Positions 3,350 to 34,322 of a stretch of DNA of 64,000 nucleotides are shown here, piece after piece. Where the stretch lies: positions 1 through 64,000 of the IMG/VR virus record IMGVR_UViG_3300034377_000007, one strand, 5' to 3'. The notes beneath the pieces are model-generated. The model searched no databases and was not told the origin of the DNA. It worked only from the letters and a program-made list of their open reading frames with translations. This stretch comes from a virus. Position numbers and translations under genes: made by a program. The stretch's first letter is position 1; the number at the start of each line of letters is the position of its first letter.

Positions 3350-3613
3350 TTAAGCTGCTCTCTCATCGCTATGCCCGCCATAAACATAGACCGCATCGTC
3401 TCCCTGCTCGCTCTGTAACAGATAAGACTCAATGGTGTAGGCTGGCACGCCTGCTGAATGGTTGCCGTGCAGCCGAGCTGCTGCATTTCTCAGCGCGGTA
3501 TCGGCTGGCGTGACTTTATACTCGACTGAAACGGGAAGATTTATTTGAACATCGCCCCGCTTTACGGCGACCTCTTTCCCGTCTAGAGGCCCTCCGACTA
3601 GCTTAGCTTTCAT
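3350..3613 (-). CDS. Hypothetical protein (87 aa)
   Basis: There is an ATGA overlap with the portal stop at 3610-3613. Confidence 0.55.
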   Translation of the reverse strand: MKAKLVGGPLDGKEVAVKRGDVQINLPVSVEYKVTPADTALRNAAARLHGNHSAGVPAYTIESYLLQSEQGDDAVYVYGGHSDERAA

Positions 3614-6558: not shown

Positions 6559-6908
6559 TCAAACCTCATCCCCGAATACTCTGCGATAACATCGCAGAGT
6601 TCTTTGCGTTGTGCTAACTCTTCGGTCCTCTGGCGGCACACCGCAATCATCATTCTGGCAATGTGCTTTCTCAACCAGGATAGTTCTTTCATTTCGGCAA
6701 TACGCTTTTGATATACAGCAATAAAGCATATCGCCACTCTGTATGTTTCCAGTTCTAGTTTTTCTCGCTCAAGGCGCTGCCGTCTGATAGAAGTGATTCT
6801 TGCTGCACGCGCCCGTATGGCGGGAAGACGAGCAATACGCATCTCCTCATCATAAAGCCCGTTATAAATATAGGGCGGCGTCCATTGCGTCTGAACAAAT
6901 TGGCTCAC
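6555..6908 (-). CDS. Hypothetical protein (117 aa)
   Basis: It is translationally coupled to terL through an overlap at 6905-6908. Confidence 0.55.
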   Translation of the reverse strand: MSQFVQTQWTPPYIYNGLYDEEMRIARLPAIRARAARITSIRRQRLEREKLELETYRVAICFIAVYQKRIAEMKELSWLRKHIARMMIAVCRQRTEELAQRKELCDVIAEYSGMRFE

Positions 6909-9870: not shown

Positions 9871-12800
9871 TTACTGATTTGCTCTCAATTCCTGCCGCCT
9901 GCGCTTCCTATCCTGAATCTTAGCTGCTCGTGCTCTCTTGATCTCCGCTCTCTCGGGATTGGCGGCGGCATCCAAAGCCTTACGGTCTTTCTCTTCCTGG
10001 CGCGCTTCCTTTTGCTCAAGGATGGGTTTAAGAGAGAGCTGCTCTGCCGGAGTAGCCAGACTGTAGACATGCCGCGCATCTTCGAGAGAAAGTAGTCGAA
10101 ACTTTTCTTGCAGATAGGTCTGACTTCTGGCTTTGATGATCGTCTCGCCCCTGTTCTCGTTGATGACGCCCGAGGCGACAAGAGGTATGACTTCACGAGA
10201 AACGTCCTCGCCACGCCGGGAGCGGGTTTTCAGTTCGTCAAGTTTGCGTAAAGTCTCCTGGTCGGGCTTCTTACTGGTCGCACGTTCCCCTTTGTAGACG
10301 AACCTCATTGCAAGCTTCTCCGCTCTGGTTTTCGGCTCGTCCGCTCGATCAGGATAGACGTTGGCGCTGAGTCCGACGGCTTCCGCTCCGGCCTGTGCAG
10401 CACCATAAGCAAAGCCCTCTTTTCTCCCGGTCTGGAAGAAGTTCTGATAAGTAATCGGAGTCAGCCTCGTGCCGATGGCCCCGTCTATTCCGTAATCTCC
10501 GAACCATGTGAAAGGCCGGCGGTCAAAGGTCTCCCCCGTGGCCGCTTCGATCATGAGGGAGGCGCGCGGGTCTGCGCCCGAGTGGAGCCAGCGGCCCATG
10601 ATGGAATCCGCCCCTTCGCCGATTACCTTATCAAAGGCCATCTGCCCTGTGACCTGTCCCGTCAATCCACGGTAAGCCTCCATCATCAGGCGGAGGACGG
10701 TTCTGGCATGTGTGGCGTTACCGGCTGAAAGATCAATACGAATCTTCCCGTATTTGAATTTCATCCAATCATCGTCGTCGGGGTCGAACAGGCTGATCAG
10801 CGCCTCGTTAGTAATCCACCCCAAAGTAGCTAGGGCTCCGAAAGTCGCAGCCATTGTCCCCCACCACCTTGCGGTATTCTTGTAGACGATTCTTCTGGCT
10901 TCGGGCGGCGCGTGCCAGAAGGAAGGGTTGAGAGGCAAGGTCAGGAATTGGAGACGAGAGACACGATACCGAGGCGCGAAGCCTATCATCCGTCCGAGTG
11001 CTAAATAAGCTTTCGTCGCTGCCGTGTTGTGGTCTCCGATGTCTGCCCTACCCGTGACGATGTTGATGAAACGTCCTACGTCCTTGTAGGCACGCGGGTT
11101 GTCTTTGTAGCCGACGCCTTTCGCTCTCAGCTCATCAATCCAGAGTTTTCCGAGTGCATGGCGGAGATGGTCTAAACCTCCGCCGAAGACCTGATCGGAC
11201 TTGCGCACGAACGTACCCAAGGTCTGCTTGATGATTGGAATTCTCTGTAGAACGTCGGCGTCCTCAAAGAACTCTTCGCCTTTATTCCCTCCGGCAAAAG
11301 AGAAATCTATGCCCATCCTCTGCATGAGCGGAAAGTCCGGGTCTTGCTCTATAACATCTATGTTTCGAGCAAACCCCGCGTCCCGGATGCTCGAAGTGGT
11401 GGCTTTGACGAACGCCGGGAATAGTTGAGGCTGCATGACTGAGGGGACGCCGCCCTGACGGAGCAAGTTCGAGACCTCGCCGGATGCCATCAAAGAGATT
11501 GGGATGCCTTTCGATGCGCGCCATGCTGTGCCGACGATACGTTGCGCAGGACTCTTTTTGAGGGCGTCCAACTCTCTCGCTACCCGCCTCCCGGCTTCCT
11601 GCCTGGCACGACGGGCTTCCTGTAGGGAAGCCAGAGCCTGGTCGCGCTCCGTCTCGGTTGAAGCCACATGCTTTTTAAGGGCTGCGGCCATCTCTCGGGA
11701 TGCGGTGACCTCTGCGCGGGCACGCTCTAAGACCTCCCCGCCGGACATGAAGGCCGTACGGGCTTCTGTAGCGGTCAATCCATGATCCGCCATCATCTCG
11801 GAGACGAGATGGCCGGGTGAGAGTCCGCGAGAGAGTTTGGTGGCCGCAATCGCATCTATGTGAGTCAAGGCGTTACGAGCAATAGCCCGGTCAAGCGCCG
11901 TTGGCTTCGGCGGGCCACTCTTCACGCCTTCTGAAAGCAGTGGGCCGGGCCTGCGCTTGAGGTCTTCACCAAGACGTGGACCTTCCTTTTTGCCCGTGGC
12001 ATCGGAGAGACGTGGGCCATACTTAGGGCCAAGCTTCGCGCGCAGTCCGGCGATTCTTCCCGGCTTCGGCCCCTTCTCAAACTCTCTTGCGGCCTTTTCA
12101 TGCTCAGCCTGTACGGCTGCGAGGCGCTTGCGCTCTTCTCTCTCTTCCCGGTAAATGTCCTCTAATTCATCGCGGCTCAGTTCTTCGTTGCCGGGGCGCT
12201 CCGATATTCTCCGGATAGCACGATCATGACGTGCCTGCCGAATGGTCTGGCGAGCGAGTTTCACCGATTTGGCGTGGATGCGGTCAAGGTCTGATGAGAT
12301 ACCGCGCCCGAAGTCCGAAAGCATGACTCTCTTCCATGCCGAGACGGAGAGGCGGCCCCTCTCTGCACGAAGGAGTTTTAATGCTCCGAGTTTGGCGAGA
12401 TTGTCTATAGTATCTTCGTCGAGAGGGCGGACGGACTCTTCCACCTGTGCCATCTTGAGAAGATGTGAGGAATTGGATTGCGCCGCACTTGTCGGCGCAT
12501 CACTCGGTTTTGAGCCTTCTGCAAATACTACGTTGGTTGGGTCAAATACAACGACATGGCTACCCCGCTCTTTTAGATGCTTACCAAGTTCTTTTGTGGG
12601 GTTGTAAATAACGCCGTCATAGCCGAGATTACGAAGGACTTTTTGGAGTTCCGCCGCGCCCCTCCAAGGTTTGAAACCCGCTCGAACGGCATACTCCACA
12701 GCCTGACCGGACAAAGGCTTTGAGGTATCCGCTTCGATGTGGCCCAAGTTACGTTCAATGTTTGACAATAAGTAGCTGTCACTCCCAACTGCGCGCTTCA

Positions 12801-15800
12801 AATCCTCTAAAGTGACCGTTGAGATATCTGGTCTAAATGGGTTTTCTAGGTTGGCAAATAATTTTAATACCCGCGCGCCCTCCTTCGACACATTTCTATC
12901 TGGATGATCTGTTGCATATTTAGAAGCATCCTTTTCACTGGTCGTCAGATAGACGGCGCGACCGTAAGAGGCTTCGGGGTCGGCCTTGGTCAAATCAAAC
13001 GCCTCTACCGCTCCCGTTGTTCCATGATAGAGCGTCACCGGGTTGCCACGTCTGTCCGTCAACTTTGTGTTGGGGTAAGCACGCTTGAACCGTGAGACTG
13101 CGTCTTCAATTTCCAGGCGGCCTGATGTCCCTGTTTGCCCTTCCGCCTCTTTTCCAGACATCAGTTCGGGCTGACGTTCGGACATGGGCGGCATTTTATC
13201 ACGACGCGCCATCTTGAGCGGCACGTCTCCCAGACCCAGAGACGCGCGCACGCTCGCCATCAAATCGGCCTCGTCAACAGCCAACAATTCAACGGCTTTA
13301 CGTTTGACGGAAATCCCGGAGCGCGGCTTCCTCGCCCTTTCAGGCAACAAGCCTTCGAGTTCTTTAAGACGATCTTCCCGGCGTTTCTCTTTATCACGAA
13401 GAGAGGCGAGGCGCTTCCTCAGAGTGTCAATCTCCGCCATCGTGAGAGCACCCTCTTCGGCCCATCCTATGAGTTTTCTTGACTGTTCTACTTCTGCGCG
13501 GGCTCCGCTCGCTTCCGCTCCCGCGACTGCCAGAACGGCAGAAGCGGATTCTAATTCTTCGCCCGCACGGTGAATTCGTGCAGCCTCTTTCTCCGATAGC
13601 TCTCTTCCTCTTTCACGCGCGACTCTGGCAGCCGTAGCCATCACGTCTTCTACGGAGTTATCTGCAATTTGGGCAGCCTGAATAGCCTGTCCTGCTTTGG
13701 TGAAGGCTGCGGCTAAAGTAGAGGCGAGGGCTTCCGCTCTGGCTCGTAGGGCGGAAGCTTCCTCGGCGTCTATCGTCGCAAACGCTTCGCTGAGCAACGC
13801 CCTTTGCATCATCTTGGACAATGCGATGTGCTCTGCTCCGAGCGCCTGGCCTGATTTTAGAAGGGATTCTGCGGCGTCAAAGCCTATTTGCTCAAGGAGA
13901 CGCTTACCGTCAAGAAGAGCGGCTTTGTTGGGATAGACTTCGTAGAGTTCGTCGGCGGCGCGAAGTCCCTGCGTGCGTAAGGTGGATGGAAGTGCGCGCG
14001 CTCTTACTTCCCGCGCTTCGCCTTCTGCTCCTGAAGGAACTTCTTTATCTCTTCCCTGCGTTCCGCCTCCGGGAGATTCTGCAACCCTTCTGCCAGCTTG
14101 ATCGCTTTCCCTAAGTGCCGACGATTCCCCGTCGGCTTGGGAGCTATTATAAGCCCTCTTCGCGTTTTCAATGGCTTGTCTGACATGGCTCTCCTGTCTC
14201 TTGAATTCACTGAAAGCATTAGGCCCGTTGCGCTCTATGAATGAACGCGTCCAGAGTTCGAGATAATTGGCGGCCTCTTCATCCGAGAGGCCGAGTTTAG
14301 CATAATCTCCCCCGGCTATCGTGGCCGCAGTCTCCTCAATAGCCAATCCACGAGAAGCATTCATGTACTCGCGGGTTGAGCTGTAGTAGTTTCGCCACGC
14401 GGAGACTGCCGGGTGCGATTCCAATTCTTCAATCTTCGTATGACGATCTTCGAGGACTCTTCCTTCCGCCCCGAGGTAGCTTCCGGCGTGGAACGATTCG
14501 TGTGGCTCCGCTGCTGCGGGAGCGTCTTTGAATTTAATAACCGCTGTGCCTTTTCCCTCTCGGGCGGCGTCAAGAAGATTCCCGGCAAGATCGTTTAAAG
14601 GTTTGACATCATCACTCGACCAACCCATCTCAGGGTCGCGCATGTCCCTGGCTGTTCCCTGCAAGGTCTTAACGATCATTCGCACCTGGGACGGCTCAAG
14701 GAATAGTCCGTCAAGGGTTGGAGCGTCTTCGAGGTCTTGAACTTTAGAGACCAGAGCGCGGCGTATGACTTCTCCACCTTCGGCGTTGACGGTGACGATG
14801 TTTTCTTCGCGTGCAGAAGAGGCTGACGGGATGAAGTCGGAGGCGTGTTCAATAGTGCGGAGGCGGCTTTGCTCAACGCTCGCCATCTTGAGAATGTTTG
14901 GGTCGGACAGCGAGAATGTGCCACGGTTGCCTGTGGCTGATTTGATCTGGTCAGGATGCAAGACCATCACACGGTCGCTATCAGCACTATAAACACCATC
15001 ATAGCCTTCGCTGATTAGCCTGCCCCTGATGGCGTCCTGCCATGTCTCGCCACTTTTTAGTGAGTAATTTCGGTATAGGTCTGCTTCTATGCGGTCAAGT
15101 GCCGTGGGCGTTATTGGTTTTTCAATCCTAACGAACACTGGCATGATAGTGCCATCGTTAGGCCGTCCAACCGCGCGAGCGTAATCGTTTCCAAGGGCAT
15201 ATTCTGCGGCCTTATCAGGATTCTTGGATAGGTATATGCCCTTACCCCAAGAGCCAGAATCAGTCTGCCCGAATTTAGATAAATCAAACTCAGTGAAATC
15301 AGCAAGCGTGCCGTGATAAACGACGAGCGGCCTGCCCTGCCCGTCAACTACCTTTGAGCCAGCAAACCACCGCTTAAATTCTGGGGTGTCCGTGATCTTC
15401 TTTATTGCTGCCTGTGCCATCTTGAGCGGGCCATCACCAAATAGACCGTTCAACTCGTTGGCAATTTCCTGTGTGCCAGGCTGTTCGATCAATCCACTTG
15501 GCAGCTTTCCTGTTCGATCAATCTCAGCAAGTAGTCTCTCTTGCTCAGAGGTCAAATCCTTTTCACCGACGAGCATCGGCTGGTTGACGTAATCGGAAAC
15601 AGGAGTGCTTGAGCGGTCAAGCTCCGCGAGCTTTGAGGGGGCGGGGAGGGTGTCGGCGAGCACCTCAGTATCAACGCGGTCAGCCGACTTGACGACCTGC
15701 GAAGCGAGGCGGCGTACGCGCGGTGGGACATCATCTTCCTGCAATCCCGCAAGGGTTGCGACGTTGTCCTTCCCCAGCGAGCGCTCTAGTTCCTTCTCTT

Positions 15801-18800
15801 TATAATAACGCTCGGCGTATTCTCTTTCCTCTCTGGTGGTGTTAGGTGGCGGCTCGAATCTCTCGACAGGGCGCGCGCCGCCTTCGGCAAACAAACCGCT
15901 CTCAGCTTCACGGAAGCCTAAGCCTCCCTGTTCGGGTTGGTAGTAGTCGGAGAGTTTACGGGATGATTGAGGCGCGCCGTTCTCGCCGAAGTCGAAGCTT
16001 GTATCCGCTTCCCCCTCCGGCTCCGTCTCGTCTATTACTTCTTCTGCAAATATTGCTGGTTCGCTTTGCGGAAGAAGAGCATCTGATGAGGCTTCATCCT
16101 GAGACGCGAGGCGAGCGAGCGCAATTTCTCTAAGCGAGCGGAGTGTGATGCCGATGAGTTCTTCGTCGAGTCCATAAGTTGCACCTATTGTAACAAGGTC
16201 ATCGTAGATTTGGGAAGATATTTCGCCCGTCCGTTCGATCTCCGCGAGCATCTCCGCAGCGTCTTTGTCCTGCATGAAACGCGCTTCACGCTCAAGCAGT
16301 TTTTCCTCTTCGGCTGAGACCTCGCCTAAAGCTGCTATCTCTTCAAAGATGGGGTTCTCTGTCGAGAGGTGGCTTGCTATGCCGCGCGCGTCGTTCTCTA
16401 CGGCTTCAAGGAATTTATCAGGGTCAACGTAGCCGTACTCAGCATCGGTCACGATGTCGGGGATGTCTCGTAGATACCCGGCATCATAAGCAGCCTGCGC
16501 CATCTGCTCGACGGTGAAGCGAGAATTTTTATTGACGAGGAATGGCTTGCCGAGTTCCTTCTGTGACAGACGTTTTAATTCTTCACCTTCGCCCTTGACG
16601 CCGCCAGATAATTGAACGAAGCGCCTGAGCGAATGCTTTTTAGGGTCGGGGGCTTGACGCTGGCGCGGCTTGCGGTTGGCAGCCTTATCAATCTTGGCCT
16701 GCCGTTTCCGCTCCGCTCTTGTTTGCCGGGAAGCGGTCAGAGGCTTCAAAGCTTGGGGTACTTCAATCGCAGGATGTGCTAAATCACTTTTCGCTGTGGG
16801 GGTAGATACGGGTTGCTGAGATTGCAAGGCCGTTCTCTTAGTTGCGAGTTCAGCTATTTCCTTGTCAACCAAAGCCAGCGTGGTTTTGTATCTGTTCGGG
16901 CGCGGAGATTGAAGCTGGCGCGCAAACATACTTTGCAGGTCTTTCTTTTGCCGCCCTAACTGCACTTGTCGGCTATCGAGCTTTGACAACTCGCGCTCGG
17001 CCACCTCTGTCTGAATCTGCGCCTCTGGCTTTAAAAGTTCCTTTAACTCTCGTTCAATAGCAAACACCCGTAACAGCGTGTTTTGCTGGTGACGTTTCTG
17101 CCGTTCAGAGGTGCGCGCCCACTGGTCAGGCAGCACTAAAGAGGGGTCAATGTAGTGTAGCCCTTGATATTCATGAATCAGTTCAGAGGCACGTTGACGC
17201 TTCTCCACCGGCAAAGCGTTGAACGCTTCTGGTCGTACCACCGTCTGACGTACTACGGCACTCTTATCAAGCGTTGGCTCTTTTATTGCAGTGGTGGGTG
17301 TAGTCTCCGCATTCTGCGACGCTTGCACCTGATCTTCTTCAGCCTGTGGAGCATTGGACTCCTTCGGGGCAATCCTGAGCCCCTGGCGTGTGCGGACGGG
17401 AACCATGATGCGGTTTCCCTCGCCTCGTCCGTTGGACTGTTGAACGATGTGCTCCGTGCCTTGATCGTCGGTTACTCGTACGCGATTCTGTCCTACTCCT
17501 GATTGATTGGAGCTTTCGGTGACGAGGCCAAAGTCAGCATGTCGCCATTGACGTGGGGGTTGAGTCTCAGAGGCGGCGGGTAGACTATCTGCGCTCCGTT
17601 CTCGTCCATCACCCACGCGAAGAGTATTCCCCTCGGCTGTTGGGCGTAGGAGTTCTGTCTGTCCAGCCTGCGGCCCATCTCCTCTTGGTGCGCCTGCACT
17701 AACTTGGAAATCTCTTCGCACTCCGCTTGCGCCATCCGAGCTACGAGCTTTGCCGCCTCTGCTATCTGTTCCTGCGTTAGACTCTGATAGGCCATTTTCC
17801 TCTACTCTCCTTTGTGCTGCTTCCTGCGCTGACAGTAATTCCTGATTCGCGGTCTGCGGGAATTGCCGCCGGTCAACTTCGGCCTGTGCAATAGCATCTG
17901 CCTCTGTTGGCACAATCGAAGTAGACAGTTCTCGCCCTTCCGCATCTTCTGTTCTGAGAGCTGGCCCAACACTTGTGTCTGTTACAGGTGCAACTTTTCC
18001 GATTAAAGGCTCGAAGCCGTTTTGAGCAACATAGTCCTGAATAGACTTGATACTTGTGAGCCCCATCGCCCGCGCTTTCGTCCTCTTGACGAGCAAGAGC
18101 CCATCGGGGACGGGAACGCGTATGAAGCCGGTCGTGCCGCCCGGTTCAGGTGAAGATTTCGGATAGAAGACGGCGACGCGGGGGGAGTTCTCGTCTCTAG
18201 CGCTTTCAAGCTGCGCTTCAATGGTCTGAGACGACTCGGGCACGGGCGCGGCGTCCGTCTCCGATGGCTGCGGCAGCAACGCCTCTTCCGCGCCGTTCAC
18301 CCGCGCCTCCGACGCTCCCTCCGTGCCTCTGGCCGCCGCCGGAGCGTCCCCTTCGGCGCTCTGCGTCCCTTTCCAGACGTAGACGGGTTGACCGTGGCGC
18401 ACGTCGCGCACGTAGCCTTCCGGTATCTCTATGGAATAGGTATCAATGATGCGTGCGTCTAAAGTAGCCCGGCGCTTGATTCCGGCCTGTATCGCTTTTA
18501 ACGCTTCGGGCTGAATCGCGGGACGGGCAGATTCGTCAACGGCGATTCGATCAAGCTTGACGAGGCGGACATTTCCATCGTCGCCGCGAACGCGGGAGAA
18601 TCCCTCGGGGGCTTCACCTTCCGCCCGTAACCTTTGCCCGTCTTCGGGCGTCAGTTCTTCGACCGTGCCGCCCCTGACCGTGCCCTGTGTATCGGTGAAG
18701 GTGACGGGCTGCGCAGGTTTCGGCTGCCGAACCGTTGAAGGTTGAGCATTCTCAGCCTGCCCTTCGACGCTGGTGGCGGGCGCTATCTGGTCAGGCAAGG

Positions 18801-20943
18801 CATCAGACGATAAACCCTCGTCCGCCGGTTCCGTGTTTGCCCGCGCCGCTTCGCTGGAACCTCTGTGAATACGCCCGCCGTGACTGCCCGTTGCTGCGCT
18901 GACGATGGCAGAGAAGAGGGCGCCGGTCGCGCCGCCCGCTCCCGCAGCCGAGTAGATGCCGTCCGTCCATTCGCGCGACTTGTCGTAACCGACGATCTTC
19001 CTGGCTATTACATTGCCCGCCGCCGTCTGGAAAAACTCCTGTACGCTCTCCTCGAAGGTCTCCTTGCCCATCTCGATGAGAGCTTTCTTGAGCGTGCCCC
19101 CGCTGATCCTATCCAGACGACGAAGCGCGGTGCCGACACCAGCCACCTCCGAGGCACCGACGCCGCCGTTTAAGAGAGCCGAGAGGGTCGCATCGTCCTC
19201 ATTTGCTCCATGCCGCTTGGCATCCCTGTAGCCTTCCGACATCCCCATCGTGACGCCGAGCAGGGCCGGGACGACGTATGCCGATTTACTGATGAGCCCG
19301 CCGGATGCGAACCCGACGGCAGAGCCGATGGCCTGCGGAATCGTGGAGGCGATAAACTCCTCCTGCCTTGCGGGGTCGGTCGGGTAATGACGCCGCGCAG
19401 CTTCGCGGATAGCCTGCGCCCATTGGGCCGTGACCAAATCCGCCGCCTGGCTGGCGTCCCTGTAGGATTGCAGACCTTCGGGCAAGTGCCTGTCTATGTT
19501 GTAGGCAGTGATGGCTATAGCATCAAGAACCCCTGCCGGCATCTCGGCCACACCGGACAGGAACTGCCCGAACGCGTGCGCGCTGGTCGAAATGGGCTCA
19601 CTACCCACTCGTGCCCTGATACGCGGAGCGGAAGCTCGCGCCCGTGTCTCCTCTTCCGACTCGATGCGCCCTTCCGGCGAGAGCGTGCCGCCCTGCTGGA
19701 TATGGGCGATCTGAGCTGGTTGGAGGCCGAGGCGGCGCAGGGCTTCGGGTCTGACCTCTCGAATCTCCCCGCCTGAACCTAAGCCCCGCTCGCGTAGACG
19801 CTCCCCGACGGGCGCAAGTCCCGGCCCCTGTCGGTTCATTTCCTGTTCGATGGCTGCACGACGCTGCATGTAAGCATCGTCCGAACGGCGCACGTCGGCG
19901 ATGCTCGGCCTCTCTCTTTGCAGGCGCTCATATTCAGCTTTCGCCGCTGCGTATTCCTGCGCCTGCTGGTCGGCAAAGGTTGGGGCGAGCAGGCCGCCGA
20001 ACTCGGGGTCAACCGGCCTCTCGGTCAACTTCCGCCGTGCACGCTCCATGCGTGTGCGCGCTCTCTCCACCTGTCGCCTGCGTGTGCGCTGTGCGGCTCT
20101 CTGCCCCCGTCTCTGCTGCATTAGTGAGACCGCCTGCTGGTTGACCTGATCTATGGCAAGCGGATGATCGCGCCATCTCGCCTGTTCGGCTAACAGCTCG
20201 GGACTTGCAGGGGAGAACTCGTCTCCTTCACGCTCAGCCGGGGGTATGCGAGGGGACTGCACAGCCCGGGTTTCAGGCTGTGCAGTTTGCGTAGCAGAGG
20301 CGGTCGGCGGGACGCTGTTTAGCCGGATGAGTTCTTCGGGAGTGATCTTGTAAGTCCTGGCTATCTGCTCTAACGTATCCCCTTCGTGGGCGATGATATG
20401 GATGACTCCTTCGCCTGCCCAGTTCGGAACGGCAACCTCTTCTCCGCTTTTGAAGATGCGCGTGGGGGCCTGCTGCGTAGCGAAGTCAATCTCGGGCCTC
20501 GGCGTGAGCGACTGTCCGATCAAAGTAGGGCTGTAAGTCGGCATCGCCGCGCCGAGGCCCGGCCCGCGCCCTCCCGGCGGGCCGACGTGGATATGAGGAG
20601 CGGTGGATTTGCCCGGAACGGCTTTATCCCAAACCGTGTGCGGTATGCCCTGCCCCTTCAGCCATTCGGCGATCCACCGTACCTGCTCGGGTGTTTCACC
20701 CTGATTGATGCCGATGTCGAATCGCCCCTCGTGGGGGATGCCCATGCGGCGGTGGGTCTCGTCGTTGCCGAAGGAAGAGACGCGGATGTCCTTGCCGAAG
20801 ACGGAGCGATAGGCTTGGTTGAGGCGGTCGCGCACGTCCGCGGGGTCGAATGAGAGGCCCGGGGTGCTGCGGGCAGGCTTCGCCACGTCCGAGAAATCAA
20901 TCTCTTCCGGCCTGGCTGCATCTGAGAAGTCGATAACAGACAT
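9871..20943 (-). CDS. Giant multidomain polyvalent-type protein (3690 aa), probably virion-packaged and injected
   Basis: It is an uninterrupted 11-kb ORF upstream of terS. The domains seen by eye are listed as separate features below. Confidence 0.9.
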   Translation of the reverse strand: MSVIDFSDAARPEEIDFSDVAKPARSTPGLSFDPADVRDRLNQAYRSVFGKDIRVSSFGNDETHRRMGIPHEGRFDIGINQGETPEQVRWIAEWLKGQGIPHTVWDKAVPGKSTAPHIHVGPPGGRGPGLGAAMPTYSPTLIGQSLTPRPEIDFATQQAPTRIFKSGEEVAVPNWAGEGVIHIIAHEGDTLEQIARTYKITPEELIRLNSVPPTASATQTAQPETRAVQSPRIPPAEREGDEFSPASPELLAEQARWRDHPLAIDQVNQQAVSLMQQRRGQRAAQRTRRRQVERARTRMERARRKLTERPVDPEFGGLLAPTFADQQAQEYAAAKAEYERLQRERPSIADVRRSDDAYMQRRAAIEQEMNRQGPGLAPVGERLRERGLGSGGEIREVRPEALRRLGLQPAQIAHIQQGGTLSPEGRIESEEETRARASAPRIRARVGSEPISTSAHAFGQFLSGVAEMPAGVLDAIAITAYNIDRHLPEGLQSYRDASQAADLVTAQWAQAIREAARRHYPTDPARQEEFIASTIPQAIGSAVGFASGGLISKSAYVVPALLGVTMGMSEGYRDAKRHGANEDDATLSALLNGGVGASEVAGVGTALRRLDRISGGTLKKALIEMGKETFEESVQEFFQTAAGNVIARKIVGYDKSREWTDGIYSAAGAGGATGALFSAIVSAATGSHGGRIHRGSSEAARANTEPADEGLSSDALPDQIAPATSVEGQAENAQPSTVRQPKPAQPVTFTDTQGTVRGGTVEELTPEDGQRLRAEGEAPEGFSRVRGDDGNVRLVKLDRIAVDESARPAIQPEALKAIQAGIKRRATLDARIIDTYSIEIPEGYVRDVRHGQPVYVWKGTQSAEGDAPAAARGTEGASEARVNGAEEALLPQPSETDAAPVPESSQTIEAQLESARDENSPRVAVFYPKSSPEPGGTTGFIRVPVPDGLLLVKRTKARAMGLTSIKSIQDYVAQNGFEPLIGKVAPVTDTSVGPALRTEDAEGRELSTSIVPTEADAIAQAEVDRRQFPQTANQELLSAQEAAQRRVEENGLSESNAGTDSRGGKARSSDGASGVRRDFQVSAGAPRGDGPQAGQTELLRPTAEGNTLRVGDGRERSADSLPAASETQPPRQWRHADFGLVTESSNQSGVGQNRVRVTDDQGTEHIVQQSNGRGEGNRIMVPVRTRQGLRIAPKESNAPQAEEDQVQASQNAETTPTTAIKEPTLDKSAVVRQTVVRPEAFNALPVEKRQRASELIHEYQGLHYIDPSLVLPDQWARTSERQKRHQQNTLLRVFAIERELKELLKPEAQIQTEVAERELSKLDSRQVQLGRQKKDLQSMFARQLQSPRPNRYKTTLALVDKEIAELATKRTALQSQQPVSTPTAKSDLAHPAIEVPQALKPLTASRQTRAERKRQAKIDKAANRKPRQRQAPDPKKHSLRRFVQLSGGVKGEGEELKRLSQKELGKPFLVNKNSRFTVEQMAQAAYDAGYLRDIPDIVTDAEYGYVDPDKFLEAVENDARGIASHLSTENPIFEEIAALGEVSAEEEKLLEREARFMQDKDAAEMLAEIERTGEISSQIYDDLVTIGATYGLDEELIGITLRSLREIALARLASQDEASSDALLPQSEPAIFAEEVIDETEPEGEADTSFDFGENGAPQSSRKLSDYYQPEQGGLGFREAESGLFAEGGARPVERFEPPPNTTREEREYAERYYKEKELERSLGKDNVATLAGLQEDDVPPRVRRLASQVVKSADRVDTEVLADTLPAPSKLAELDRSSTPVSDYVNQPMLVGEKDLTSEQERLLAEIDRTGKLPSGLIEQPGTQEIANELNGLFGDGPLKMAQAAIKKITDTPEFKRWFAGSKVVDGQGRPLVVYHGTLADFTEFDLSKFGQTDSGSWGKGIYLSKNPDKAAEYALGNDYARAVGRPNDGTIMPVFVRIEKPITPTALDRIEADLYRNYSLKSGETWQDAIRGRLISEGYDGVYSADSDRVMVLHPDQIKSATGNRGTFSLSDPNILKMASVEQSRLRTIEHASDFIPSASSAREENIVTVNAEGGEVIRRALVSKVQDLEDAPTLDGLFLEPSQVRMIVKTLQGTARDMRDPEMGWSSDDVKPLNDLAGNLLDAAREGKGTAVIKFKDAPAAAEPHESFHAGSYLGAEGRVLEDRHTKIEELESHPAVSAWRNYYSSTREYMNASRGLAIEETAATIAGGDYAKLGLSDEEAANYLELWTRSFIERNGPNAFSEFKRQESHVRQAIENAKRAYNSSQADGESSALRESDQAGRRVAESPGGGTQGRDKEVPSGAEGEAREVRARALPSTLRTQGLRAADELYEVYPNKAALLDGKRLLEQIGFDAAESLLKSGQALGAEHIALSKMMQRALLSEAFATIDAEEASALRARAEALASTLAAAFTKAGQAIQAAQIADNSVEDVMATAARVARERGRELSEKEAARIHRAGEELESASAVLAVAGAEASGARAEVEQSRKLIGWAEEGALTMAEIDTLRKRLASLRDKEKRREDRLKELEGLLPERARKPRSGISVKRKAVELLAVDEADLMASVRASLGLGDVPLKMARRDKMPPMSERQPELMSGKEAEGQTGTSGRLEIEDAVSRFKRAYPNTKLTDRRGNPVTLYHGTTGAVEAFDLTKADPEASYGRAVYLTTSEKDASKYATDHPDRNVSKEGARVLKLFANLENPFRPDISTVTLEDLKRAVGSDSYLLSNIERNLGHIEADTSKPLSGQAVEYAVRAGFKPWRGAAELQKVLRNLGYDGVIYNPTKELGKHLKERGSHVVVFDPTNVVFAEGSKPSDAPTSAAQSNSSHLLKMAQVEESVRPLDEDTIDNLAKLGALKLLRAERGRLSVSAWKRVMLSDFGRGISSDLDRIHAKSVKLARQTIRQARHDRAIRRISERPGNEELSRDELEDIYREEREERKRLAAVQAEHEKAAREFEKGPKPGRIAGLRAKLGPKYGPRLSDATGKKEGPRLGEDLKRRPGPLLSEGVKSGPPKPTALDRAIARNALTHIDAIAATKLSRGLSPGHLVSEMMADHGLTATEARTAFMSGGEVLERARAEVTASREMAAALKKHVASTETERDQALASLQEARRARQEAGRRVARELDALKKSPAQRIVGTAWRASKGIPISLMASGEVSNLLRQGGVPSVMQPQLFPAFVKATTSSIRDAGFARNIDVIEQDPDFPLMQRMGIDFSFAGGNKGEEFFEDADVLQRIPIIKQTLGTFVRKSDQVFGGGLDHLRHALGKLWIDELRAKGVGYKDNPRAYKDVGRFINIVTGRADIGDHNTAATKAYLALGRMIGFAPRYRVSRLQFLTLPLNPSFWHAPPEARRIVYKNTARWWGTMAATFGALATLGWITNEALISLFDPDDDDWMKFKYGKIRIDLSAGNATHARTVLRLMMEAYRGLTGQVTGQMAFDKVIGEGADSIMGRWLHSGADPRASLMIEAATGETFDRRPFTWFGDYGIDGAIGTRLTPITYQNFFQTGRKEGFAYGAAQAGAEAVGLSANVYPDRADEPKTRAEKLAMRFVYKGERATSKKPDQETLRKLDELKTRSRRGEDVSREVIPLVASGVINENRGETIIKARSQTYLQEKFRLLSLEDARHVYSLATPAEQLSLKPILEQKEARQEEKDRKALDAAANPERAEIKRARAAKIQDRKRRRQELRANQ
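10790..10866 (-). other. Hydrophobic (TM-like) segment near the C-terminus of the giant protein
   Basis: The segment is WWGTMAATFGALATLGWITNEALISLF. Confidence 0.4.
12449..13218 (-). other. ART-like module 2 of the giant protein
   Basis: RRGNPVTLYHGT...YGRAVYLT...ASKYA...GYDGVIYN...HVVVFDP is a paralogous copy of module 1. Confidence 0.55.
14488..14502 (-). other. HEXXH (HESFH) zincin-type metal-binding motif in the giant protein
   Basis: PHESFHAG lies between the two ART-like modules. Confidence 0.5.
14882..15426 (-). other. ART-like module 1 of the giant protein
   Basis: FKRWFAGSKVVDGQGRPLVVYHGT...WGKGIYLS...AAEYA...GYDGVY...QIKSATGNRGTF resembles the ADP-ribosyltransferase-like domain of phage polyvalent proteins, as I remember it. 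Confidence 0.6.
20308..20403 (-). other. LysM-like peptidoglycan-binding motif of the giant protein
   Basis: HEGDTLEQIARTYKITPEELIRLNSV matches the LysM core (GDTL..IA..Y.....L...N). Confidence 0.65.
20581..20781 (-). other. LAS-type zinc peptidase-like segment of the giant protein
   Basis: The pattern IPHEGRFDIGI ... APHIHVG fits the H-x(n)-D ... H-x-H metal-ligand pattern of LAS / M15-type cell-wall peptidases. Confidence 0.5.
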
Positions 20944-24166: not shown

Positions 24167-24436
24167 TTATCCCTTCTTCCTCAGTTCCTTATTGACCTCT
24201 CGAATCGTCACCTCGTCAATCTCACCCGTGACGACTAATCTGTGCGTGACCTGAAATGTTCGGATGGCGAATTTCAAGTCACTATCCATTCCACGACCTT
24301 GAGCGTTCTCGGGCAGGTAGCCCAAACTGACCAGTGCGTTTCTGAGGTCGCGGTATTCGTCATGTGCTATTGGTGGCGATTGCAGCCCCTCTGCCGTGTT
24401 TTCTTTCCCCTCCGGTGCTTGGGTGTCTAGATTCAT
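24167..24436 (-). CDS. Peptidoglycan-binding-domain protein (89 aa, no catalytic domain seen)
   Basis: LRNALVSLGYLP...DSDLKFAIRTFQVTHRLVVTGEIDEVTIREV fits the PG_binding_1 pattern (L..LGY...G.....A...FQ.....G..D..T). Confidence 0.6.
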   Translation of the reverse strand: MNLDTQAPEGKENTAEGLQSPPIAHDEYRDLRNALVSLGYLPENAQGRGMDSDLKFAIRTFQVTHRLVVTGEIDEVTIREVNKELRKKG

Positions 24437-24447
24437 AAGAGGCCCTT

Positions 24448-24504
24448 AAAACGACAAAAACCGACTCGAAGATAAAGTCCTTTTCAAGACTTCGCTTCGG
24501 TCGG
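24448..24504 (-). terminator. Long hairpin plus U-run terminator downstream of the tRNA-like RNA
   Basis: The minus strand reads CCGACCGAAG...CUUCGAGUCGG followed by UUUUUGUCGUUUU. Confidence 0.55.
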
Positions 24505-24568
24505 TCGCATTACGCAACGCCACGGCCCATTCGGGCCAGAACCGTTAGGTTAGATTGTCATCTGAATT

Positions 24569-24684
24569 AGCTATACGTCGGAGTCGAACCGACTTGTTTT
24601 TCTACCAAGACTAATCACGAATCGAACGTGAACAGCAGGAAGCCCCGAAGGTATTCCCCGTTGTGCGCCGCCAACTGGCATAGC
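24569..24684 (-). ncRNA. Non-canonical tRNA-like RNA (115 nt; tRNA-Ser(CGA)-like with a 27-nt inserted hairpin)
   Basis: The acceptor stem is 7/7 paired (GCUAUGC/GUAUAGC). There is a D-arm-like GUUG-GCGGCGCA-CAAC and a canonical T-arm GUCGG-UUCGACU-CCGAC. A 5-bp/7-nt-loop arm (UCACG-UUCGAUU-CGUGA) has CGA at the anticodon position. The variable region is 21 nt, and there is an extra UUCG-capped hairpin. Confidence 0.55.
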
Positions 24685-24744
24685 CATTCAGACTTTCAAA
24701 GCAGGATGTTTCGCACACCCTGCGGAAGCGTTTCGCGCTTGGCT

Positions 24745-25026
24745 CTAAGCCGCGCGCTCATTCTGATCAGATTGCATTGTACTACAATTCTCTTCCATTT
24801 CATCTAATAAATCCGCTATCTTGCGATGATCTTCTGCCGTCAAGGGTGTGGCGTGAATTTCCTTTCCATGTGACGCCGTGCTGCGGCTCTTGCCGATGTC
24901 CAGCAATAAAGCAATCGGATACTGACAGCAGGCGCATAGTAGCGACGGCCCCTTGCTGCGCTGTACAACCCTTGTATGCGAGAGTTCTAATACCACTTGC
25001 TCTTTATCTGTAGTATCAGCCATCAA
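24745..25026 (-). CDS. Hypothetical protein (93 aa)
   Basis: It is a complete ORF overlapping the upstream stop by 11 nt. Confidence 0.5.
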   Translation of the reverse strand: MMADTTDKEQVVLELSHTRVVQRSKGPSLLCACCQYPIALLLDIGKSRSTASHGKEIHATPLTAEDHRKIADLLDEMEENCSTMQSDQNERAA

Positions 25027-27124: not shown

Positions 27125-27921
27125 TTCGTCAACTCCTTCACACCAGTACAGGAAACACATTCGTAGATATGAAAGCAGTTACGACAGACCATTTTATTCA
27201 TACTGAGCACGCCTGATTTCTCCCCGCAGCTCGGGCACATTTCATTCGTTTCGAGCGGAGCATTGCAGACTTCGCCAGCCGTCCAGCCTTCGACCGTATT
27301 CGCTTCCCGGCCACAGGATGAGCAGCGCAAGGGCTGTCCGACATTATCCTTAAACGGTTCAACTTCTACGGGCTTGCTTCCGATCATCCGTAGAGCTGCG
27401 CGCATGACGGCAGCTTGATCGAAGGTGACACCCCGCTTGCGCTCCGGTTCTGCGCCAGGCTCATGCCTGCATCCCGGCCTCACAGAGCCATCCGGCATCC
27501 GCTCCATACCCGTCCCGAAGCATTTCCGGCACGTACCCGATGCGTGCTCGGGCAGTAAACGAGTCTCGTCAATCTCGCTGTATAAGTCTTTGATCTTTAG
27601 CCATTCGACTGCCAAATCGTTCGGCGTGATGATCTGGCGCTCTTTACCCTGCCCACGCCTTTCGCTCTCGCGTTGCTGGGCTGAGCGGTAGCAATCTGAA
27701 TATCTTTCCGGCGGTGTGCCCGCGTCCGAAAGGATTTCAAACCACGTCAGGATGGCGATATCCTGCTCATTCTCAGGCAAACGATTCCAGCCCATCGCGG
27801 CGCGCGACTTGTCAATCAGCATACTCAAGACGGCTGCCGTTTCCTGGTCAGGCACGTTTGGGATATTTGCTGAAGTCTCGCGTGATGGGTGGTTTCGTGT
27901 AGGTGTTTGCAGGTTTTTCAT
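27121..27921 (-). CDS. Multi-zinc-finger protein in the replication module (266 aa)
   Basis: It has a DnaJ-type CRKCFGTG motif plus several CxxC pairs. It lies downstream of the initiator-like gene. I could not establish a function. Confidence 0.55.
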   Translation of the reverse strand: MKNLQTPTRNHPSRETSANIPNVPDQETAAVLSMLIDKSRAAMGWNRLPENEQDIAILTWFEILSDAGTPPERYSDCYRSAQQRESERRGQGKERQIITPNDLAVEWLKIKDLYSEIDETRLLPEHASGTCRKCFGTGMERMPDGSVRPGCRHEPGAEPERKRGVTFDQAAVMRAALRMIGSKPVEVEPFKDNVGQPLRCSSCGREANTVEGWTAGEVCNAPLETNEMCPSCGEKSGVLSMNKMVCRNCFHIYECVSCTGVKELTK

Positions 27922-28675
27922 TTCCGTTCCTTTCGCCGCTGTCTCTAACTTTCCAGCTACCGATTTCTTTTTTGACCGTTAGCCACGAAACGCGCGACTT
28001 TCGCCAGTGGTCAGGGTCTTTCAACTCGTCAAGGAAATCTCGTAAGCACTTGATTGATTCGTCCGCGTTGTAACCGTTCGTGAGTAGCCACCTGACCGCA
28101 TCGCCTTGCGCTTTGCCGTCCGAGATGGCCCCGGTTTGCTTTGCCAATTCCTTCATCATTCGCTGATGATCGCTTTCGGGTGATGCCCGACCATTGGGCG
28201 CGTCAGCGCCAGTGTTTTTAAGTTCTTTAGTAATTAAATTATTACTATCCTTGGTGGGTACGGAAGGGGGGACATTATGTCCTCTTTTATCGGCAGAAAT
28301 GTCCCCTTTTACGGCATCAAATGTCCCCTTTTCTGTTGGAAATGTCACCTTTTCCGCATCCGATAAGGTGACATTATGTCCTCTTTTATCGGACTCAATG
28401 GGGACATTATGTCCTGTTTTATAAGTGAAGGTGAACGAGTGCCAGTTGCCTCGTCCGCGACCTCTGGCGATGGTAAGTTCACCAGATTCTTCGATCTTGT
28501 CCAGCAGTCTCTTGATCTGGCGTACGTCCAGCCCCGTGTAGTCTGCGAGGATGCTAAGCCCAAGTTCCACGGTGTCGGAGTCTTGCAGTTCTTCTGCTAT
28601 AGCGAGCATTACAAGGCGCGCACCGCCTTTGTGCGTCGAGTATTTCCAGACAAATTCCCGAGCCTTGTCGCTCAC
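27848..28675 (-). CDS. Replication-initiator-like winged-helix protein with internal iterons
   Basis: The N-terminus is wHTH-like (GGARLVMLAIAEEL...LADYTGLDVRQIKRLLDKIEESGEL). The central linker has KRGHNV repeats encoded by the iterons. Confidence 0.6.
   Translation of the reverse strand: MSDKAREFVWKYSTHKGGARLVMLAIAEELQDSDTVELGLSILADYTGLDVRQIKRLLDKIEESGELTIARGRGRGNWHSFTFTYKTGHNVPIESDKRGHNVTLSDAEKVTFPTEKGTFDAVKGDISADKRGHNVPPSVPTKDSNNLITKELKNTGADAPNGRASPESDHQRMMKELAKQTGAISDGKAQGDAVRWLLTNGYNADESIKCLRDFLDELKDPDHWRKSRVSWLTVKKEIGSWKVRDSGERNGNEKPANTYTKPPITRDFSKYPKRA
28214..28250. other. AT-rich tract next to the iterons (candidate DNA-unwinding element)
   Basis: The tract tttttaagttctttagtaattaaattattactatcc sits in otherwise GC-rich DNA. 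Confidence 0.45.
28271..28422. repeat. Six phased iterons (core ATGTCCnCTTTT), candidate ori
   Basis: ATGTC cores lie at 28277, 28299, 28321, 28342, 28376 and 28409, giving spacings of 22, 22, 21, 34 and 33 bp. A 23-bp perfect direct repeat GACATTATGTCCTCTTTTATCGG lies at 28271 and 28370. Confidence 0.7.
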
Positions 28676-29398
28676 TTACGCCTGCTTTCTGTCAAGTACG
28701 GTGAAGGGTTTGGTTAACTGCGAGCCGTAGCCATGCTCGCTGAGTTTTCGGGTAAGCACATTGCAGAGTCCGACCATCTGGCGAACAACGACCGGGTTTT
28801 TCCAGTCGGTTAATTCGGTTTCGATGATGCGCTTTGAAGTGTGGAAATATCCGGTCTGGCTTTGCCCGCCAAGCCCTTTATGAACCTCGTTCTGTTCTTC
28901 CGTGAGCGTCTGGCCGTGCATGTGCATATCGGCCTGTTTGAGTGTTATAGGCTTAGCGAGAAACTGCGCGGTGAAGGAACTAACCGGCTTATCTTTTAAC
29001 CTCTGAACGGGGAGTCTCAAGGCTACGGCAATCTTCGCCTCTTCTATTCCGAGCTGAGATGCGCGCTGGCGTATCTGCTTGACCTGGTAGGATGAGTAGC
29101 GCACGCCATGCTCGGCATTAGCAGCGACGGCTTCAAGAAAAAATTCCTGATCACTGCCCATGTCAACCAGCACGGCGCTGATCTTCTTACGCCCGGCTTT
29201 TCGATGCGCGCGGGCGCGGTGTTCACCGTCAACGATTGTCATCGTCTTCCGGTCAACTTTGATCGGAGGGAATTTACTGCCCCCGAGAAGTGCCTGCGTG
29301 TAGTTCTCCACCGCCACCATGTCAACGGCGTGGCGTGGATAGAGATATGAATTCGCCTTCAGATCGTTTAATTCAAGGACTACAGCCTCTTCCGTCAT
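28676..29398 (-). CDS. ParB/Srx-fold nuclease-domain protein (240 aa)
   Basis: TIVDGEHRARAHRKAGRKKISAVLV matches the ParB N-terminal-domain motif (DG.HR..A). I chose the start at MTEEAVV, which has an AGGAGG RBS. The upstream part of the track ORF is Cys/Arg-rich and probably non-coding. Confidence 0.65.
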   Translation of the reverse strand: MTEEAVVLELNDLKANSYLYPRHAVDMVAVENYTQALLGGSKFPPIKVDRKTMTIVDGEHRARAHRKAGRKKISAVLVDMGSDQEFFLEAVAANAEHGVRYSSYQVKQIRQRASQLGIEEAKIAVALRLPVQRLKDKPVSSFTAQFLAKPITLKQADMHMHGQTLTEEQNEVHKGLGGQSQTGYFHTSKRIIETELTDWKNPVVVRQMVGLCNVLTRKLSEHGYGSQLTKPFTVLDRKQA

Positions 29399-29451
29399 AT
29401 CAAACCTCCTGCCCAAACAACACAAAAGCCCGCACCGTTTGGGCGCTATGT

Positions 29452-29566
29452 TGCACAAATCTTGCGACGGACTTGTGGACACAGACGCCCGCAACGATGC
29501 AGGCTTTTCTATTAAGATTTGTGCAGACCTTCTCCGAAAACAAGAAAGCCCACAAGTCCGTCGCAA
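29452..29566. repeat. Two interlocked perfect inverted repeats upstream of the ParB-nuclease-like gene
   Basis: A is TGCACAAATCTT (29452-29463) and A' is AAGATTTGTGCA (29514-29525). B is TTGCGACGGACTTGTGG (29462-29478) and B' is CCACAAGTCCGTCGCAA (29550-29566). The order is A-B...A'...B'. Confidence 0.7.
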
Positions 29567-29602
29567 TTCCAATCACAGCACAAAACACTTTCTCGTGGCT
29601 GA

Positions 29603-33837: not shown

Positions 33838-34107
33838 TCATGTATTTAATCCCCCTTTCCTTTGTCGTTGCTGTTCGCTGTGTTTATGCATTGCTTCCCA
33901 CACCTTCTTCTTCATTTCGACTTCCTTCTTCCGTCTGCGCCGATGTTCAATACGCCCATCCAACCAGTTGACGAAGATGTAGAGGATTGCCGCGCAACCG
34001 TAGATTTGTAGAAGGGGTATTGGGATTATCCAGTCCATGCTTGAATCGAACCAACGTGGAATTGAAACGAAGGCCATCATTGCCGGGCGGCTGGACTCGC
34101 AGAACAT
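33838..34107 (-). CDS. Small membrane protein (start uncertain)
   Basis: The TM segment is WIIPIPLLQIYGCAAILYIFVNW, followed by a basic tail. Confidence 0.4.
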   Translation of the reverse strand: MFCESSRPAMMAFVSIPRWFDSSMDWIIPIPLLQIYGCAAILYIFVNWLDGRIEHRRRRKKEVEMKKKVWEAMHKHSEQQRQRKGGLNT

Positions 34108-34322
34108 CGCCCTGCTTATCCCTGCGGCATGGAGCCACAGTTGCCGCCCGTGTGTGATGGGGAATTACGCTCTTGCGGCCCCATCGCAAACTAAAAGTTA
34201 GGGTAGGGCTGCTACCCGACCGACTAGCGCCACACGTTGCCATTTCAGGACGGTGGCCTCTGTGGTGGCTCGCTGAATTAACTGCGTCTCGCAGCCCATA
34301 ACTGATATTTGACAAAGAGCGA

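Follow-up and report, generated by a model that had tools for sequence, protein, structure and literature searches.

The minus strand of a 64,000-nucleotide stretch of phage DNA (IMG/VR virus record IMGVR_UViG_3300034377_000007, positions 1 to 64,000; here called the window) contains at 24684-24569 an element of 116 nt that is very probably a structured RNA, conserved and tRNA-like, without a decoding role. The element is most likely a tRNA mimic and not a working tRNA, with a putative decoy function. The explanation that we regard as the best overall, a stand-alone gene for a non-decoding tRNA mimic whose product works as a decoy, is, taken as a blend of its parts, a little short of an even bet, and the decoy mechanism considered by itself is tentative. 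An earlier note on this DNA had given the length as 115 nt (the interval counts 116) and had described a tRNA-Ser(CGA)-like scaffold with an inserted hairpin; it overlooked an extended closing helix, the T-arm identity of the apparent anticodon arm, and a wider set of phage RNAs.

Architecture of the Element

The element lies in a 308-nt gap flanked by the minus-strand open reading frames (ORFs) 24745..25026 and 24167..24436. Position p of the element corresponds to window coordinate 24685-p, and its parts, with the strands that close it, are as follows.

24684-24678 with 24576-24570, minus strand: acceptor-like stem, GCUAUGC paired with GUAUAGC, 7 pairs, one of them G.U
24678..24685, minus strand: 5' strand of the acceptor-like stem, G-GCUAUGC, including the G of the pair G24685.U24569
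24569..24576, minus strand: 3' strand of the acceptor-like stem, GUAUAGC, followed by U24569 at the discriminator position
24677-24676, minus strand: C8 and A9, between the acceptor-like stem and the D-like arm
24675-24660, minus strand: D-like arm GUUG-GCGGCGCA-CAAC, with a 4-bp stem and GG in an 8-nt loop
position 26, minus strand: G26, a single nucleotide between the D-like arm and the extra hairpin
24658-24637, minus strand: extra hairpin GGGAAUACC-UUCG-GGGCUUCCU, with a UUCG tetraloop
24636-24632, minus strand: GCUGU linker between the extra hairpin and the UCACG arm
24631-24615, minus strand: arm UCACG-UUCGAUU-CGUGA in the anticodon-arm position, with a 5-bp stem and a 7-nt loop
24610..24636, minus strand: long arm formed when GCUG/UAGU extends the UCACG arm from below, 9 bp in total (RNAfold)
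24614-24594, minus strand: variable region UUAGUCUUGGUAGAAAAACAA, 21 nt, with UGG at 24607-24605 and an A-rich stretch
24593-24577, minus strand: true T-arm GUCGG-UUCGACU-CCGAC
24686..24693, minus strand: 5' strand of the outer closing helix, GUCUGAAU, which pairs with 24567-24560; its CUGAAU is kept in the homologue described below
24534..24568, minus strand: bulged A24568, 3' strand of the outer helix AUUCAGAU (24567-24560), and tail GACAAUCUAACCUAACGGUUCU

All of the listed helices of the 116-nt element were recovered by RNAfold in the minimum free energy (MFE) structure, together with the 4-bp extension GCUG/UAGU under the UUCGAUU arm. The anatomy proposed earlier is indeed present: the D-arm-like helix, the T-arm, the 5-bp arm whose 7-nt loop carries U33 and a CGA triplet, the 21-nt variable region, and a pyrimidine at position 37 (U24621). 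The acceptor stem, which had been called a perfect 7-bp helix, is fully paired, but one of its seven pairs is G.U, so that not all are Watson-Crick. The inserted stretch had been written as a UUCG hairpin plus 5 nt; the hairpin is there, but its 3' side had been given one G too many. It is made up of a GGGAA/UUCCU stem, a 2x2 internal loop, and a CC/GG stem capped by UUCG.

The helix that closes the element is longer than the 7 bp of a tRNA. The fold of the whole intergenic region and its pair list give a closing helix of about 16 bp, and the uridine that had been proposed as discriminator, although present at 24569, is predicted to pair with G24685 inside this helix in the primary transcript. 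CCA is not encoded at the 3' end, as read from the sequence. The intergenic region (308-311 nt) folds with an MFE of -121 kcal/mol (z = -4.5), and 0 of 100 shuffled sequences fold as well.

Covariation with a Second Phage

One true relative of the element was found, at L003:4593-4709 (IMGVR_UViG_3300044808_000019); the Logan contig L001 has the sequence of the window unchanged. The core of the L003 copy is 93% identical over 98 nt, its flanks are unalignable to the window, and none of the L003 ORFs resembles a window ORF. The covariation comparison that the earlier note had proposed came out in favour of three of the helices, in which six doubly compensated pairs are seen when the two copies are compared in ungapped register; the L003 copy keeps all the helices, the D-like arm and the extra hairpin without change. 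In the true register 95% of the cells are paired, versus 37-45% when the partners are slid by one to three columns, and the slid registers yield just 0-2 pairs with double compensation.

The changes are concentrated in the helices. Every position of the acceptor stem is altered, from GCUAUGC/GUAUAGC in the window to GGU(C)GCGG/CCGCACC in L003, with pairing kept (three doubly compensated pairs ungapped, and 7 bp overall with one bulged C). The T stem, GCUGG/CCAGC in L003, adds two doubly compensated pairs and the UUCGAUU arm one compensatory pair, U-A to C-G, and only three substitutions lie outside helices in the alignment as read by eye. L003 also retains the outer helix (4585-4591 with 4709-4715, CUGAAU/RUUCAG). 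At the discriminator position it has G73, accompanied by G1-C72 and G2-C71, where the window has U. Beyond the closing helix an A/U-rich tail, (A/G)UUCAG-U-ACAAU-UAA-UA-C-GGUUCU, is partly conserved (window 24534-24568, minus strand; L003:4709-4743), with a similarity of about 75% in a gapped alignment that was read by eye and carries no significance estimate.

A conserved core between unalignable flanks, with compensatory changes in its stems, points to more than a chance structure. It is hardly credible, then, that the locus is non-functional as an RNA, whether as a decayed tRNA pseudogene, a chance structure, the gene of a small protein on either strand or a DNA site such as an attP core. 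Mechanical ORFs do overlap the element (24628-24807 on the plus strand of the window, 4540-4707 on the minus strand of L003, and a 36-codon sense ORF in the window), and recombination by homing endonucleases at T-loop DNA can produce chimeric tRNA fragments in phage arrays (PMC13096335). The two antisense ORFs, however, agree in 16 residues that stem from identical DNA only and have different starts and ends, and the antisense peptide has no word match in a protein collection of 5.8 billion sequences, while the sense ORF is interrupted by TGA in L003 (sequence read by eye). As for an attP site, in neither phage does the locus coincide with an integration module.

A Second T-loop in the Anticodon Position

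The closing pair and loop of the apparent anticodon arm, G-UUCGAUU-C, match the T-arm consensus at every position (G53; U54, U55, C56, G57 and A58; C61). We scanned IMG/VR for CGTTCGATTCG followed 15-40 nt later by GGTTCGANTCC; the set is defined by a hairpin of at least 4 bp with the loop UUCRAUU located 15-40 nt upstream of a true T-arm GGUUCGANUCC. The scan returned 55 loci, 48 of them distinct, where fewer than one is expected from a calculation based on the size of the collection. The window matches through 24631-24615 and 24593-24577, and it has in addition an enclosing 7-bp acceptor-type helix and a UGG loop between the two T-loops.

Several features recur around the matches. A perfect 7/7 acceptor complement is found upstream in 25 of the 48 (5.5 expected from shuffles) and a complement of at least 6/7 in 41, a stem of at least 4 bp lies beneath the first T-loop in 46, and UGG is present in the linker between the T-loops in 38/49 (22.7 expected), usually in a predicted hairpin loop. 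A same-strand tRNA lies within 300 nt of 22 of the 48 loci, and only one of the 48 overlaps an ARAGORN call. The Rfam tRNA model spans two members, L069 (47.9 bits) and L037 (37.3 bits), over their full length, inserts of 56 nt and 66 nt taking the place of the anticodon arm. Against the other members of the set model R1 scores 15-34 bits, mainly via the T-loops that they have in common, and the architectures differ.

A further scan of IMG/VR left the triplet free (CGTT NNN TTCG, 15-40 nt before a true T-arm, with stem filters). Among the matches listed, CGA occurs 30 times, CGG seven times and CAA three times, all others being singletons, and other Ser, Leu or Tyr anticodons are absent. The seven CGG matches listed read by eye as ordinary tRNA-Ala(CGC) in a different register, and CGA and CAA both obey the T-loop rule C56-R57-A58. 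The pattern fixes the U-U...U-U context and speaks for loops of that form alone. Judged by these sequences, the loop in the anticodon position behaves as a T-loop copy across the related phage RNAs. That the element belongs to an undescribed class of phage tRNA mimics, in which a second T-loop stands in for the anticodon loop and a UGG loop would serve as its docking partner, is a speculative proposal, and we consider it doubtful. A literature search turned up no account of a tRNA mimic whose anticodon position is occupied by a T-loop. Unspecified tRNA-like candidates do appear in a catalogue of possible structured RNAs from IMG/VR published in 2023, and members of the two-T-loop set may be listed there (PMC10690425).

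The set (IMG/VR loci L032-L085 and L105 onward) consists of tRNA-shaped RNAs of 90-160 nt, many of them inside large tRNA arrays; examples are L037:291-416(-), L069:2503-2621, L050:10643-10748 and L071:2853-2962. In L056:3351-3481(-), in a second copy at L056:4228-4347(-) that surrounds the pattern match 4238-4289(-), and in L081:1569-1702, the place of the anticodon arm is taken by a conserved long arm, GGAAACC...internal loop with GG...UUCCG-UUCGAUU-CGGAA...GGUUUC, which is too long for decoding, and one of the L056 copies ends in an encoded CCA. L042:3579-3685(-), around the pattern match 3590-3647(-), has a closing helix of about 17 bp, CCUUAACUUAGUUCC / GGAACUAAGUUAAGG, and stands outside tRNA arrays, as does the window element. 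The long closing helix is not a property of the whole set, being found in the window/L003 type and in L042 only, which hints that stand-alone copies are excised differently.

Within the tRNA arrays, GIY-YIG homing endonucleases are the only recurring neighbours of the two-T-loop RNAs, and a T4-type homing endonuclease is known to cut T-loop DNA (PMC13096335). Two tRNAs with a CUA anticodon, labelled tRNA-Pyl by ARAGORN, lie near two-T-loop RNAs (L045:1607-1682(-) and L064:5532-5605(-)); they are possible amber suppressors, which would imply stop-codon recoding in those phages. The same arrays hold additional non-standard tRNA-like genes, which ARAGORN reports as 'tRNA-???', with 2-nt or 4-nt anticodons (L033:2880-2953, L033:4319-4396, L034:2499-2572 and L056:5162-5238).

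Tests against tRNA Models

ARAGORN found no tRNA or tmRNA gene in the whole window. The intact element gave nothing usable in default, intron, relaxed and tmRNA modes, relaxed thresholds producing merely a distorted 91-nt parse, and Rfam had no match at its gathering thresholds. These runs, most of which had been proposed in the earlier note, bear out its view that the RNA is not a standard tRNA. At E<=10 the sole relevant Rfam match was tRNA-Sec, with 17.3 bits versus a gathering score of 47, and it rests on the acceptor stem and T-arm. Once nt 27-53 were deleted, ARAGORN in default mode called an 89-nt tRNA-Ser(cga), in agreement with the proposal of an insertion at the 26/27 junction of a class II tRNA-Ser(CGA)-like scaffold; when the UUCGAUU arm was removed instead, it called nothing. 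The two deletions thus assign the UUCGAUU arm to the anticodon-arm place and identify the UUCG hairpin as the extra piece.

The element has the 7-bp acceptor stem, the 5-bp T stem and the UUCRANY T-loop of canonical tRNA (RF00005). Its resemblance to class II tRNA-Ser goes further: the T-loop has the form UUCGANY, the D arm contains GG, the variable region is long, and U33 and CGA lie in a 5-bp/7-nt arm. Of the canonical core, however, the GG of the D-loop alone is present: C24677 occupies position 8 where U8 is expected, and the first base of the D-loop is G24671 in place of A14. The anticodon arm does not follow directly after position 26, as 27 extra nt intervene between G26 and the arm, and U24621 takes the place of the purine at position 37. 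Unlike class II tRNA-Ser, the element therefore has an insertion at 26/27, C8, no A14, and U37 next to U38; its loop is a copy of the T-loop, and its 3' end lacks an encoded CCA and is paired in the 16-bp helix.

These comparisons make it very unlikely that the element is a true tRNA-Ser(CGA) carrying one additional arm, which would decode UCG and be charged by SerRS, an enzyme that ignores the anticodon. The ARAGORN call after removal of 27 nt, the 7-nt loop with U33, and the G73, G1-C72 and G2-C71 of the L003 copy would all suit such a tRNA. The intact RNA, on the other hand, is called by no model, it has the wrong bases at 8, 14 and 37, and the inserted hairpin sits at the hinge between D stem and anticodon stem. 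The discriminator is U in one copy and G in the other, and it is base-paired; the triplet of the loop is fixed to the T-loop consensus among the matches listed, with no other anticodons; and the arms of other members, for example those in L056 and L081, are far too long. Of the three functions offered in the earlier note, a tRNA with an intervening element is consequently the least supported, there being no U8 or A14, a U at 37 and a buried 3' end, and the reading as a tRNA mimic or decoy fits better with what can be deduced from sequence.

Other tRNA-related identities were rejected. tRNA-Sec and allo-tRNAs have acceptor/T stems of 8/5, 9/4, 8/4 or 9/3, a 6-bp D stem, a UCA or variable anticodon and a long variable arm; the element has a 5-bp T stem, a 4-bp D stem under an 8-nt loop and a CGA triplet, and an eighth acceptor pair, G24685.U24569, exists solely as part of the 16-bp helix. 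For tmRNA, the corresponding ARAGORN mode was empty even when relaxed, Rfam tmRNA had no match and the 116 nt contain no conserved frame. An archaeal-type intron would show a 3-4-3 bulge-helix-bulge, which a reading of the fold does not reveal at the junctions 26/27 and 53/54, and an archaeal host is at odds with the bacterial-type genes and signals of the window (PG_binding_1, LysM, ParA/ParB, intrinsic terminators).

Genomic Setting and Distribution

Three further features surround the element in the window.

24456..24504, minus strand: rho-independent terminator CCGACCGAAG...CUUCGAGUCGG, with a nested hairpin at 24504-24461 and UUUUU at 24460-24456
24701..24723, minus strand: upstream 9-bp hairpin GCAGGGUGU-GCGAA-ACAUCCUGC, present in the MFE and centroid folds
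24776..24803, minus strand: possible sigma-70-type promoter (-35 ATGAAA, 16-nt spacer, -10 TACAAT), for which the evidence is weak

The earlier note had recognized the terminator as a strong hairpin with a U-run; 20 nt separate its end from the start codon ATG of the next ORF (starts 24436). L003 has a terminator of its own, GCCGACA...UGUCGGC followed by UUUUUU, about 35 nt past its element. A riboswitch or attenuator was considered and rejected: the T-arm and the window terminator both contain GUCGG/CCGAC, yet L003 shows nothing alike. The upstream hairpin sits between the element and the stop of the upstream ORF (ends 24745), and the hairpin at the corresponding place in L003 is not homologous to it. 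The possible promoter falls within the 3' end of the upstream ORF; a promoter consensus scan gave two sites versus 1.0 expected in shuffles, and no equivalent was found when one was looked for in L003.

The element is accessory, patchy and autonomous of its neighbouring genes, and it comes with its own terminator. In L003 it is part of the module of head genes, with a portal-sized gene on one side and the capsid genes on the other, and since the neighbour genes differ between the two carriers, cis-regulation of one particular gene is unlikely. It is absent from the relatives of the window (L093-L099, 45-52% identity in a 376-amino acid (aa) protein) and from those of L003 (L100-L104, 57-69% identity in the downstream protein), in the latter also at the syntenic gaps. 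Nucleotide searches of cultured phages with the 1-kb and 12-kb regions gave no match, nor did such searches with three other two-T-loop RNAs. The D-arm 16-mer occurs at 29 IMG/VR loci, all by chance except L003; homologue pattern scans returned seven matches in genome contigs, all chance, and nothing in metagenomes.

The setting allows a reading in cis, in which the fold and its closing helix are an RNase P/RNase III site that splits the minus-strand operon transcript and thereby uncouples the stability of upstream and downstream mRNAs, the excised RNA being a by-product. RNase P is known to cut mRNAs and phage RNA precursors at tRNA-like structures, and both copies of the element are flanked by same-strand ORFs within long operons. 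Together with the 5-bp T stem on which it would stack, the closing helix of about 16 bp would amount to about 21 bp, an RNase III-like length. For a processing signal, however, an invariant core of 85 nt that includes a second T-loop and a UUCG hairpin would be superfluous, each copy has its own terminator, and the absence of the element at the same sites in related phages places it outside the basic design of the operon; we therefore judge this punctuation role improbable. Were the element a mere processing signal, it would still illustrate usefully how tRNA-like folds can punctuate phage operons.

The similarity that reaches about 35 nt past the closing helix in L003 and the terminator with a U-tail after both copies would also accord with a longer product, a base-pairing small RNA (sRNA) of about 230-320 nt that ends at the terminator and has the tRNA-like fold as its 5' domain. 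Its seed could lie in the single-stranded tail 24559-24534, or the tail could be released in the manner of some tRNA trailers. The similarity of the tail is weak and gapped, conservation is strongest in the tRNA-like core and not in the tail, and no target was identified, the two phages having no common genes nearby. Such an sRNA is, in our estimate, a distinctly small possibility.

Proposed Mechanism

We return to the favoured reading, a stand-alone tRNA mimic acting in trans. The element holds two T-loops and two single-stranded GG sites, the D-like loop and CUUGGU, which by analogy with tRNA structure is the stoichiometry that two elbows would need. The RNA would be transcribed and excised from its closing helix of about 16 bp by host enzymes, with a cut by RNase P at G24684, perhaps another by RNase III in the outer helix, and 3' trimming thereafter. 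The acceptor-like stem would stack on the T-arm, as in tRNA, and each T-loop would dock on one GG loop, resulting in a tRNA shape with two 'elbows' and no anticodon. A host factor that recognizes tRNA shape may then be the target of this molecule, which would work as a decoy or sponge; candidates are a tRNA-targeting defence nuclease or toxin and a tRNA-processing or tRNA-modifying enzyme. We favour a decoy because the gene is accessory, because the recognition surface is kept and duplicated while the anticodon is discarded, and because there are documented cases of defences that cut class II tRNAs and of phage tRNAs that counter them (PMC13096335).

Several observations weigh against this proposal. 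The 16-bp closing helix buries the would-be 3' end, which is atypical for substrates of RNase P and RNase Z and could point to a different biology. Within the collections searched there are only two sequences of the exact type, the D-like helix and the UUCG hairpin are invariant between them and so receive no support from covariation, and the bare 116-nt element, with z = -1.6, folds just modestly better than its shuffles. The pattern by which the two-T-loop set was assembled fixes the T-loop context; the set is heterogeneous, and some of its members may be recombination debris from tRNA arrays. No partner protein recurs beside the element or the related RNAs, and no defence target can be named.

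Phage tRNA genes are known to take part in an arms race with tRNA-targeting defences, a picture limited to what tRNA finders see. The window element and the roughly 48 related loci are tRNA-shaped RNAs that these finders skip, and they appear to drop decoding and yet to keep or duplicate the T-loop 'elbow' that is read by most tRNA-binding machines. If the proposal is true, two-elbow RNAs could titrate or mislead RNase P, T-loop modifying enzymes and tRNA-cleaving or tRNA-modifying defence effectors, and would represent an RNA-only counter-defence or takeover device missed by standard tRNA finders. If they are expressed, they would add a class of RNA mimics to the accessory genes of phages, give a handle on the host factors that read tRNA shape during infection and possibly provide a counterpart to stable RNAs that have long gone unexplained, such as T4 rnaC/rnaD.

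Comparison with Known Phage and Bacterial RNAs

The C4 antisense RNA of P1/P7 is a small regulatory RNA of phage-plasmids that RNase P releases from a longer transcript by way of a tRNA-like precursor fold. The window, like the P1/P7 hosts of C4, looks like a phage-plasmid (ParA, ParB, replication initiators), but the element has no Rfam match to the C4 family or to any other, and no complementary target sites were identified for it. A second precedent is provided by T4 rnaC/rnaD (species 1 and 2 RNAs), which are small (119-139 nt), unexplained and encoded with the T4 tRNA genes, rnaC ending in a T-arm-like CCGGG-UUCGAAU-CCCGG (AF158101, annotation and sequence). Many two-T-loop RNAs likewise sit in phage tRNA arrays, whereas the window element is outside any tRNA array and the window is without tRNA genes. 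Homology to rnaC/rnaD was rejected, as model R1 scores them at or below the level of ordinary tRNAs and neither sequence nor structure is homologous.

Closest to the proposed function are the tRNA-Tyr genes of T5/T6, which have been proposed to supplement or act as decoys for nucleases that cut class II tRNAs, in the cases of retron-Eco7 and Septu, and defence systems that cut the variable loops of class II tRNAs are documented (PMC13096335). The element resembles these tRNAs in being phage-encoded, class II tRNA-shaped, accessory and patchy. They are complete decoding tRNAs, however, and the element has no usable anticodon, so that the functional link would be one of analogy.

The YrlA Y RNAs are non-coding, mimic the T-arm and D-arm of tRNA, have a long helix formed by their two ends, are also phage-borne and are modified and processed by tRNA enzymes; they are encoded within about 4 kb of rsr, on the same strand, and their acceptor-like stem is closed by a loop while the ends form the Ro-binding helix (PMC4201824). 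The element has the same two components, a long helix from its two ends and a tRNA-like module with T and D arms, and tRNA mimicry is described for bacterial and phage Y RNAs (PMC4201824). It could on this model tether a host Ro60/Rsr, with the tRNA-like module as the effector-binding end. The topology, though, is permuted: the ends of YrlA close the anticodon-stem side and those of the element the acceptor side. No TROVE/Rsr gene lies within 4 kb (ten neighbour proteins, 20-28 kb), and no Rfam Y-RNA family matched even at E<=10. In a Pfam scan of 87 window ORFs, which matched 33 families, TROVE was absent from the best 25, as were RtcB, CCA-adding enzyme, synthetase and RNA ligase. A Y-RNA-like tether is therefore scarcely plausible. 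Of the rivals to a tRNA mimic acting as a decoy, we rank the punctuation site first, then the 5' domain of a longer sRNA, the tRNA-Ser with an extra arm, the Y-RNA-like tether and, last, a non-functional locus.

Other Features of the Window

A third GTTCGATTC 9-mer lies at 34043-34051 on the minus strand, inside ORF 33950..34315. The window contains five 9-mers of the GTTCGATTC type versus 3.4 expected, model R1 sees no tRNA-like structure at 34043-34051, and this copy is probably due to chance.

The window encodes the large subunit of a phage terminase at 6905-9289, and the occurrence of this gene together with ParA, ParB and replication initiators suggests a phage-plasmid. The ParA-like protein matches AAA_31/CbiA, a ParB-like gene is located at 28676-29572, and replication initiators are encoded at 27848-28675 and 43334-44344; the window also encodes DNA methyltransferases. 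A single ORF of 3690 aa occupies 9871-20943 on the minus strand and contains ART-PolyVal (E=1e-41), DUF3990 and LysM domains. The product resembles the giant 'polyvalent' proteins that enter cells along with phage or conjugative DNA. Homologues of 3200-4100 aa are encoded by the related phages L093-L095 and L098 with differing sets of domains, among them 2',5' RNA ligase, FtsK_gamma, MuF_C, Peptidase_M23 and D12 methyltransferase.

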